Below are positions 9,419-10,760 of a stretch of 16,926 nt of DNA, in pieces. The stretch lies in UHGV virus genome UHGV-2150566. One strand, 5' to 3'. This DNA comes from a virus. The position numbers and the translations under genes are program-made. The stretch's first letter is position 1; each line of letters opens with the position of its first letter. The notes under the pieces were generated by a model. That model saw only the letters and a list, made by a program, of their open reading frames with translations, made no database searches and was not told the DNA's origin.

Positions 9419-10270
9419 ATGGCAAAGCTGGACTGGAAAAAACTGGAGCAGGCATTCCGACGCGAACATGCCAGAACTGGCATAAAACTTCAGGACTGGT
9501 GTCGACAGAACAATATCAGCTATGGCACGGCTCGTCGGTACATAAAACTGCGCAAAAACTCCCCCAAAAATACAGAGGAAAGTGCGCAGAAAAATGCGCA
9601 AAAAAGTGCGCAAATTGACACTCAAAAAAGCGCACAAAAAAATGCGCATGGAGCTGATGACGAGTCCAGTAATGACGAGTCTTACGGCGATGATGGCAGT
9701 GATGAAAAATGCGCAAAAAACTGCGCAAATTCGGCAGAAACGAAACGCAACAGCAGATCGGGTAATCCTCACCCCGTTGCCCGGTTTAGCGACCGTAACA
9801 CCCACGCCGTGAGACACCGTGGATATGCGAAGTATCTTGAGGCAGATAACCTCATGGATGATGCGTCCGATATGGTGCTGTTCGATGAACTGGTGTTCAC
9901 CCGGGCCCGCGCACTTTCAGTAACAGGAACACTGAAAAAAATGTTCGCCGACCTGAAAGAGGCGGCTGACGTGGAAACCCGTGTTGCCCTGTACGACAAA
10001 ATACTCAAAGCAGAACAGGCCCTTGACCGGAATATTGCCCGTATCGAGTCAATTGAACGCTCATTGCTGACGCTGGACGTTCTGGCGGAAACAGCACCAA
10101 AACTTCGTGCTGACCGGGAAAGAATCAACGCCGCCAGAGATAAACTCAGAGCGGAAACCGATATTCTGACCAGCCAGCGCCGGGGGGTTATTACGCCAGT
10201 CAGTGACATCGTGTCATCGCTGCATGAAATGAGTAATTCGGGGAGACTGGATGACATTCCGGAAGAATGA
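9419..10270 (+). CDS. putative terminase small subunit / DNA-binding packaging protein
   Basis: 283-aa ORF, first gene after the lysis cassette. N-terminal HTH-like segment (IKLQDWCRQNNISYGTARRYI), low-complexity acidic linker with SAQK repeats, C-terminal coiled-coil-like region. TerS role inferred from position and architecture only. Confidence 0.45.
   Translation: MAKLDWKKLEQAFRREHARTGIKLQDWCRQNNISYGTARRYIKLRKNSPKNTEESAQKNAQKSAQIDTQKSAQKNAHGADDESSNDESYGDDGSDEKCAKNCANSAETKRNSRSGNPHPVARFSDRNTHAVRHRGYAKYLEADNLMDDASDMVLFDELVFTRARALSVTGTLKKMFADLKEAADVETRVALYDKILKAEQALDRNIARIESIERSLLTLDVLAETAPKLRADRERINAARDKLRAETDILTSQRRGVITPVSDIVSSLHEMSNSGRLDDIPEE
9549..9733 (+). repeat. cluster of TGCGCA(A/G)AAAA(A/G) 12-bp units (tandem at 9583/9595/9607 and 9710/9722, further copies at 9549, ~9630, 9643)
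   Basis: Read directly: ctgcgcaaaaac, gtgcgcagaaaaa, tgcgcaaaaaag, tgcgcaaattg, gcgcacaaaaaaa, tgcgcatgg, tgcgcaaaaaac, tgcgcaaattc. A palindromic TGCGCA core followed by an A-tract; encodes the SAQK repeats. Confidence 0.7.
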
Positions 10271-10760
10271 ACCGCGATGTGATGAACCGTCAGAAATGAC
10301 CGGGACCGAACAACGTCTGTTCATCATGACTAAACTGAGCAATCCCTGGTGGCGGCTCAATCATCTCTACAAAATACAGAACGAAAAAGGTGAGCTGGTC
10401 ACCTTCAGAATGCGACCGGCGCAGCGCCAGTTGTTCCGGAGCATGCACAATAAAAATATTATCCTGAAAGCACGCCAGCTGGGGTTTTCCACGGCCATTG
10501 ATATTTATCTTCTCGACCAGGCATTATTCATACCGCATCTCAAATGCGGGATTGTCGCTCAGGATAAACAGGCTGCCAGTGAAATTTTCCGCACCAAAAT
10601 TGCTGTACCGTTTGATCATCTTCCTGACTGGCTGAGAGCCTCATTCACCATCGTTGAACGTCGTAGCGGAGCCAGCGGTGGCTATATCCTGTTTGGTCAC
10701 GGCTCGAGTATTCGGATCTGTCCGATAAACAGACCATGCGGAGTTATTTATGGATTTTGA
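10251..10760 (+). CDS. terminase large subunit-like N-terminal fragment (169 aa); probable truncated gene
   Basis: Contains a deviant Walker-A-like motif of the TerL type (ILKARQLGFST; compare T4 gp17 SRQLGKT, lambda gpA KSARVGYS). Far shorter than a functional TerL and ends before a Walker B/nuclease region; the next ORF is scaffold-like. Family assignment from motif and position only. Confidence 0.4.
   Translation: MTFRKNEPRCDEPSEMTGTEQRLFIMTKLSNPWWRLNHLYKIQNEKGELVTFRMRPAQRQLFRSMHNKNIILKARQLGFSTAIDIYLLDQALFIPHLKCGIVAQDKQAASEIFRTKIAVPFDHLPDWLRASFTIVERRSGASGGYILFGHGSSIRICPINRPCGVIYGF

Follow-up and report, generated by a model that had tools for sequence, protein, structure and literature searches.

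The virus genome UHGV-2150566, analysed here over a stretch of 16,926 nucleotides (nt) that is termed the window in the following, raises the question why an open reading frame (ORF) of merely 169 codons stands between the gene for a small terminase subunit (terS) and a head gene, in a position where intact relatives encode a full-length large terminase (TerL) as well as a portal protein. In the original prediction this ORF was taken for a TerL-like fragment with a deviant Walker A motif that stops about 90 residues later in a non-conserved tail and overlaps a scaffold-like gene. The absence of Walker B, nuclease domain and portal gene was ascribed to an internal deletion of roughly 3 kb or more, leaving a prophage unable to package DNA and still in possession of its lysis and cargo genes. 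Alignment with intact relatives, i.e., phage PhiR12_3 (locus L001), the Sakai prophage Sp5 and ten loci from isolates or metagenomes, points to ordinary prophage decay, in which one recent deletion cost the prophage both its packaging function (TerL) and the portal vertex, with terS and the genes for lysis, capsid and cargo left intact; we assign this reading a probability of about 0.9. The features on which it is built are the following:

10251..10711, + strand: retained 5' part of terL, codons 1-154, specifying the ATPase subdomain with the deviant Walker A motif (identity to PhiR12_3 TerL, PHROGs, gp17 alignment)
10710..10711, unstranded: deletion junction with the 2-bp microhomology AT (blastn coordinates, three-way junction display, identical 27-mer in 10 contigs)
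10712..10760, + strand: new 15-codon tail RICPINRPCGVIYGF plus TGA (former spacer between portal gene and ORF61, read in the terL frame)
10740..10743, + strand: GGAG ribosome-binding site of the next gene, kept (read from the sequence; the deletion ends 40 nt 5' of the ATG)

The ORF at 10251..10760 (+ strand) comprises 169 codons from an ATG at 10251 to a TGA at 10758-10760. At the 5' side it shares 20 nt with the terS gene, which encodes 283 amino acids (aa), and its TGA lies 11 nt deep in the following gene, the ATG of which is found at 10750. Residues 1-154 of the product are identical (154/154 aa) to the 568-aa TerL of phage PhiR12_3 and share 96.8% aa identity with ECs1220 of Sp5. When full-length TerL was compared with the window by tblastn, residues 1-157 were matched with E = 8.6e-102, which is far beyond chance. 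PHROGs family phrog_2, large terminase, recognizes the stub with E = 2.9e-19 and the full-length protein with E = 5.3e-52. Pfam and NCBIfam return no family for either the stub or intact TerL, such that the identification as TerL rests on PHROGs, on the alignment with gp17 structures of the PDB and on 100% identity to annotated terminases. PADLOC does not match the stub either, and nothing in these collections marks the product as a complete member of a non-terminase family.

The segment KARQLGFST occupies residues 73-81 and the ORF ends 88 residues later, just as had been anticipated. In a HMMER alignment, ARQLGFST (residues 74-81) is placed opposite the Walker A segment SRQLGKTT of T4 gp17 and can thus be addressed as Walker A. 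A deviant form of this motif, with GFST for GKT and a lysine further upstream, is known in several terminases. Intact TerL aligns with T4 gp17 in two stretches, residues 50-153 matching the ATPase and residues 372-542 the nuclease (3CPE, 3C6A), and its Walker B motif (IIFDE) is located at residue 200, i.e., beyond the last native residue of the stub, residue 154. The stub is therefore devoid of both Walker B with the catalytic carboxylate (hhhhDE) and the C-terminal RNase-H-like nuclease domain, and a tblastn search of the window with TerL residues 155-568 was negative (best E = 3.6). The last 15 residues of the stub, 155-169 (RICPINRPCGVIYGF), have no counterpart in TerL: from position 10712 the window equals L001 from 11922 onward, which is non-coding DNA in the intact phage, and the non-conserved tail is read-through into this spacer. 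As judged from sequence, the 169-aa product is a truncated large terminase that has kept Walker A and lost Walker B and the nuclease domain.

With regard to the missing DNA, a megablast search of 9300..12000 against 50,697 phage records yielded matches that split at window position 10710/10711. The left half corresponds to terS and the 5' end of terL from PhiR12_3 at 99.4%, and the right half matches about 3.5 kb further along in PhiR5_2, GER2, POCJ13 and many Stx phages. In the nucleotide alignment, window positions 8647..10711 equal L001 (PhiR12_3) 6348..8412 and positions 10710..14202 equal L001 11920..15412 with one mismatch in 3,493 nt. The offsets of the two flanks differ by 3,509 bp, which is how much the window lacks, and comparison with ten further intact loci gives a gap of the same size. 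In the intact phage, terL (1,707 nt, 568 aa) is followed by a portal gene (2,145 nt, 714 aa), a spacer of 157 nt and a gene of 1,008 nt. Of this arrangement the window lacks the last 1,246 nt of terL (codons 155-568, including Walker B and the nuclease domain), the complete portal gene (714 aa, P22-type; PF16510, E = 4e-129) and about 117 nt of the spacer, 40 nt of which are kept ahead of the ATG of ORF61. A tblastn search of the window with the portal protein found no copy (best E = 0.65). The dinucleotide AT is the only sequence common to both parents at the junction, which marks it as an illegitimate join at microhomology and not as recombination between repeats.

The proposed nucleotide alignment with intact relatives thus located the breakpoint at 10710-10711, the size of the deletion lies in the range foreseen in the original prediction, the portal gene is indeed missing between terminase and next gene, and neither the 3' part of terL nor a portal gene occurs in unusual order elsewhere in the window. 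In view of these alignments it is very probable that 3,509 bp were lost in one recent, illegitimate event reaching from behind terL codon 154 into the portal-ORF61 spacer. The reverse scenario, an ancestral short form into which 3.5 kb were inserted, was rejected, because the segment encodes the essential 3' half of terL and the portal protein in frame with the stub. The spacer of intact relatives also features a strong, terminator-like hairpin (GGAACCCCG...CGGGGTTTTTT) directly 3' of the portal gene (L015 12700..12725) and, following it, a second, imperfect one; both reside in the part that is deleted in the window.

The deletion allele is rare. The junction is spanned by 0 of 223 matching phage records and by none of the 424 genomes that carry one or both halves among 5,426 complete Escherichia coli genomes, and exact-pattern scans for it gave 0 matches each in GTDB representative genomes, IMG/VR and JGI metagenomes. 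It was found exclusively via an exact-protein index of a large assembly collection, in which the exact 169-aa product is present in 49 blocks and on 30 contigs (sources ENA, Logan and JGI) that come from independent human gut metagenomes. Ten loci (L003-L012), stemming from ten different human gut metagenome assembly accessions, were read. The junction 27-mer (CACGGCTCGAGTATTCGGATCTGTCCG) is identical in all ten, seven match the window without a single difference between 850 nt upstream and 5,200 nt downstream of this junction, and the identical tract among carriers typically extends over 8984..16249. An identical junction in all loci combined with a microhomology of 2 bp indicates a single origin and effectively rules out an artefact of assembly. 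The exact TerS allele of the window, on the other side, is found in 757 blocks, with intact terL and portal genes in all ten of the longest contexts, and the intact TerL sequence occurs on at least 1,000 contigs. The deleted locus L003 differs from the intact loci L018 (CP077225) and L023 by three single-nucleotide polymorphisms (SNPs) in the left 9.3 kb; on the right side, four SNPs in 4.1 kb separate it from L018, and one SNP plus two indels in the 1.6 kb compared separate it from L023. The closest intact relatives are 3-8 SNPs apart over 13 kb, and this near-identity implies that the deletion is recent. From these comparisons, the deletion is to be regarded as young and as carried by a minority of copies of a prophage that is itself very common.

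Functional consequences can be predicted from Sp5, a Stx2 phage of E. coli O157:H7 Sakai, since the module in the window is orthologous to its genes ECs1219-1228, which are arranged in the order terS-terL-portal-ORF61-major capsid protein (MCP). Measured against this head-packaging module of the Sepvirinae (Sp5/933W-type), which is defined by that order and by the essential nature of all its members, the window is incomplete: the portal gene is absent and terL is cut, the other members being present and orthologous. A virion-essential function has therefore been lost relative to PhiR12_3 and the ten intact loci, as is characteristic of a defective prophage. Head and packaging genes of Sp5 have been deleted singly (Mondal et al., 2016; PMC5155283). 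The mutant lacking ORF60 (portal) excised and neither packaged DNA nor lysogenised nor formed plaques; it yielded tailless head-like particles and was complemented by a plasmid. In the same study ORF61 proved necessary for head formation, without an assigned role, and the spiral phenotype typical of a missing scaffold was due to loss of ORF65/ECs1226 (PMC5155283). For the gene overlapped by the stub this means that the overlap itself, 11 nt, is real and the designation as scaffold is not established: the gene is the ORF61 orthologue, and the scaffold-like phenotype belongs to the ORF65 orthologue at 13937..14500.

A packaging defect is predicted for the element in the window because the orthologous portal mutant of Sp5 cannot package DNA. 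Upon induction, the element would still express its lysis and head genes and kill the host; it would build proheads without portal, package no DNA and release no infectious particles by itself. A co-resident related prophage that supplies TerL and portal protein in trans could restore packaging. In the prophage pool of strain Sakai, the terminase-defective Sp4 is reported to be packaged by the terminase of another prophage (PMC2669165). The predicted inability to package DNA thus applies to the element alone and not in general, as loss of the Sp5 portal can be complemented in trans. Unaided, the deleted copy would almost certainly fail to make infectious particles if it behaves like its Sp5 counterpart.

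Several points limit this interpretation. The packaging defect is transferred from the orthologous Sp5 mutant, and with a view of 16.9 kb a second copy of terL or the portal gene elsewhere in the same genome is possible. Up to 6 matching places were counted per E. coli genome, and several such prophages often co-reside. The window does not include an attachment site or chromosomal flank; one of the carrier contigs, scaffold_31 of ERZ28630194, has a length of 165 kb, and further carrier samples include ERZ27277824 and ERZ918237. A run of 75 N at 2430..2504, inside the 5' part of a gene for an N6/N4 DNA methyltransferase, indicates that the window derives from a scaffolded or masked assembly. 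In addition, the backbone switches at around 7490..7500, within a DUF826 gene that immediately precedes the gene for holin. Window positions 1..7500 are 0-6 SNPs away from lambdoid prophages with a DUF968-RusA-Q-methylase-tRNAs-TolA-SASA backbone, which is connected to an HK97-type terminase/capsid/portal module in 10/10 contexts and in strain S1-KEN-03-A, and from 7500 on the window equals the podovirus-type, deletion-bearing contigs. It departs from L003-L007 upstream of about 7500, flanks vary as well beyond about 16214, and carrier contig L009 ends exactly at the switch point (window 7491). The switch possibly reflects a true recombinant or a scaffold chimera between co-resident prophages, and the deletion junction is unaffected either way. 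As further observations on these parts of the window, the window encodes residues 39-352 of the 352-aa intact methyltransferase homologue with 100% identity, and strain SW07163 (CM129852) carries both parental prophages.

The deleted element could also be a defective phage that is still mobile and spreads with the help of TerL and portal protein from co-resident relatives, which we consider rather unlikely. The same junction on contigs from several unrelated human cohorts, flanks that differ beyond an identical core of 7 kb, with SNP clusters 500-800 nt off the junction in L005, L007 and L011, the precedents of Sp5 portal complementation in trans (PMC5155283) and of the reported packaging of Sp4 by a foreign terminase (PMC2669165) as well as the retention in the window of terS, a candidate pac array of TGCGCA palindromes and the other head and tail genes would all be in line with such spread. 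Yet the allele is rare (49 blocks, whereas the same TerS allele occupies 757), neither the viral contigs of IMG/VR nor any of the phage records searched contain it, and clonal inheritance in one successful gut lineage fits equally well. The differing flanks are no proof of horizontal spread, since the HK97-linked left 7.5 kb and the N gap allow a chimera: differences between flanks may stem from chimeric assembly, and the left flank of the window is otherwise always HK97-linked. The further-reaching version, a helper-dependent terL-portal deletion allele that circulates between E. coli strains as a satellite in the making and whose stub optionally interferes with packaging of the helper, appears slightly more doubtful still; what speaks for it is the occurrence in several cohorts and a variation of flanks that may be artefactual.

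That the 169-aa product is functional itself, e.g., as a dominant-negative N-terminal TerL fragment that titrates TerS and blocks related superinfecting phages, would agree with its native start, the overlap with terS, the retained Walker A subdomain and the persistence of the allele in many samples. Its tail, however, is accidental spacer read-through, no defence family is matched, the deletion is too young to show selection, and the position in the late operon implies expression only after induction, which makes such a role very improbable. Least credible of all is a junction created by assembly. A scaffolded window that is interrupted by N and perhaps joined chimerically at about 7500 invites that suspicion, but the same junction is present in 10/10 contigs from 10 assembly accessions following several naming conventions (k141_, NODE_, METAG-scaffold), and no repeat longer than 2 bp exists at the breakpoints that could mislead an assembler. 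Ordinary decay by one recent deletion remains our preferred reading.

One lead concerns the origin of this deletion. Locus L023 (ERZ28751982 contig_2148, a long-read metagenome contig of 347 kb) carries a 2,454-bp insertion sequence (IS) of the IS66 family at 12801..15254, in the spacer between portal gene and ORF61, with the terminal inverted repeat GTAAGCGT and an 8-bp target duplication ACTCAACC. In L015 coordinates the insertion maps to 12800|12801 and the right breakpoint of the deletion to 12800|12801 to 12802|12803, i.e., the target duplication ends exactly at the right breakpoint. The k-mers linked to this lead are ACTCAACCGTAAGCG and CGCTTACACTCAACCATTCGG. It is conceivable, and we propose it tentatively, that the initiating break was associated with IS66, either because an inserted copy was cut out or because the target in the spacer was cleaved when an insertion was attempted; the break would then have been resected on one side into terL and its ends joined at AT. 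With 3 SNPs in 9.3 kb, L023 belongs to the intact loci that are nearest to the deleted allele, and the chance of an IS site within 10 bp of either breakpoint in the 16.8-kb locus can be roughly estimated at about 0.2%, or at 1-2% when intergenic DNA alone is counted. Against this origin speak the single IS-bearing contig (L023), which also adds to the points weighing on the overall interpretation, the lack of an IS remnant in the window, a hairpin-rich spacer that could have drawn both events independently and the fact that the coincidence was noticed after the fact. IS66 was encountered at the spacer site in none of the 5,426 complete E. coli genomes, the JGI metagenomes, the GTDB representatives or IMG/VR, and these searches brought no IS-adjacent intermediate to light either. 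Two further candidates were dismissed: partial 'terminase' proteins of 147-159 aa that fall into the same cluster are not terL::IS fusions and represent intact terL cut at contig ends, and an IS in phage GER2 is located elsewhere and is not the same insertion.

The genes surrounding the lesion are well preserved, as had been proposed for the lysis and cargo genes. Holin, endolysin, Rz, TerS and the five downstream head genes (10750..13953) are full length and exhibit 89-100% identity to their PhiR12_3 counterparts. The members of the head module referred to above are:

9419..10270, + strand: terS, 283 aa, intact (phrog_370 terminase small subunit, E = 2.5e-117)
10750..11757, + strand: orthologue of Sp5 ORF61/ECs1222, 335 aa, intact (100% aa identity to PhiR12_3, 89.9% to ECs1222)
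11780..12994, + strand: MCP, 404 aa, intact (PF13252, E = 4.3e-87; 93.8% identity to Sp5 ORF62)
13937..14500, + strand: orthologue of Sp5 ORF65/ECs1226, 187 aa (tblastn match to ECs1226, 187 aa, at 80% aa identity, covering residues 1-181)

TerS is full length with 99.3% aa identity to PhiR12_3. Within its gene, seven of the twelve TGCGCA palindromes of the window are crowded into 179 nt (9549..9727) in A-rich contexts (AAAAATGCGCAAAAAA), coinciding with the stretch that accounts for the different lengths of TerS here (283 aa) and in Sp5 (268 aa). Enrichment of the palindrome over the whole window is not significant, and it is the clustering that stands out; the cluster may constitute a candidate pac site or an array for binding of TerS. 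At the distal end, a tail-fibre reading frame continues past the end of the window.

The stx genes are absent from the window and their position is occupied by a gene for a TolA-domain lipoprotein. This ORF of 142 aa (3930..4358, + strand) combines a TolA C-terminal domain (PF06519, E = 5.7e-23; NCBIfam TolA) with a lipoprotein signal (MYCRAVPVLVLILASLTTGC), and its site equals that of stxAB in Sp5, i.e., after Q, methylase and tRNAs and before the SASA esterase. It is named 'TolA' by PGAP in S1-KEN-03-A, has no PADLOC match and could serve as a decoy against TolA-dependent colicins or filamentous phages. Downstream of Q, two tRNA genes are present at 3490..3651, one with anticodon CAT and one for tRNA-Arg (TCG). 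The CAT tRNA is assigned to Met by ARAGORN, and a homologue in RefSeq is annotated as Ile, ileZ-like; the third tRNA of Sp5 (argO, TCT) is missing. A related prophage from S1-KEN-03-A (L014, NZ_CP145698 418847-447174) is decaying, too, with an internal stop in the endolysin gene, a frameshifted portal gene and a truncated YdfR, and these lesions illustrate how commonplace such decay is.

In practical terms, the Sp5-like, non-Stx prophage concerned is very common in E. coli; typing should list the present copy as defective in packaging, and annotation should treat the 169-aa ORF as a terL pseudogene, not as a small terminase-like protein. The 27-nt junction marker (CACGGCTCGAGTATTCGGATCTGTCCG) allows one young defective allele to be tracked through human gut metagenomes, which could reveal whether defective alleles persist clonally or move with helper prophages, and the coincidence with the IS66 site offers a small hint, open to testing, at the way in which deletions in prophages begin. 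What is new is the precisely mapped allele; the kind of lesion itself is well known.

Among established systems, the Sp5/933W-type module is the obvious reference. Gene order is the same and aa identities amount to 75% for TerS, 97% for the N-terminus of TerL, 90% for ORF61, 94% for MCP, 80% for ORF65 and 89% for ORF66, whereas terL codons 155-568, the portal gene orthologous to ORF60 and the stx genes are lacking in the window. Even closer are PhiR12_3 (PV340552), PhiR5_2 (PV340546) and isolate prophages (e.g., CP077225 and CM129852), which are 98.6-99.97% identical to the window in nucleotide sequence to the left and right of the junction; PhiR12_3, PhiR5_2 and the matching intact prophages all carry the 3,509 bp that are absent here. 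With large terminases of the T4 gp17 type (PDB 3CPE, 3EZK, 2O0H) the stub shares the ATPase subdomain with Walker A, and in comparison to gp17 it is devoid of Walker B, the coupling motif and the whole RNase-H-like nuclease domain. The window resembles the defective lambdoid prophages of strain Sakai (Asadulghani et al., 2009; PMC2669165) in that a morphogenesis or packaging function is lost and other modules are intact, and in the potential for complementation by and recombination with co-resident relatives. It differs from them in that the Sakai lambdoid prophages keep an intact terminase with the exception of Sp4, which has an IS in nu1 (PMC2669165), while the window features a clean 3.5-kb deletion of TerL and portal that is known from sequence alone. 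With phage satellites (PICI, cf-PICI and P4-like elements) it would have in common helper-dependent packaging, if it is mobilised at all. Pfam and NCBIfam scans of the ORFs in the window detected no satellite-type families, and unlike satellites the window keeps the capsid and lysis genes of its parent phage and is 99.9% identical to an autonomous phage; the element is a fresh deletion mutant and not an evolved satellite.

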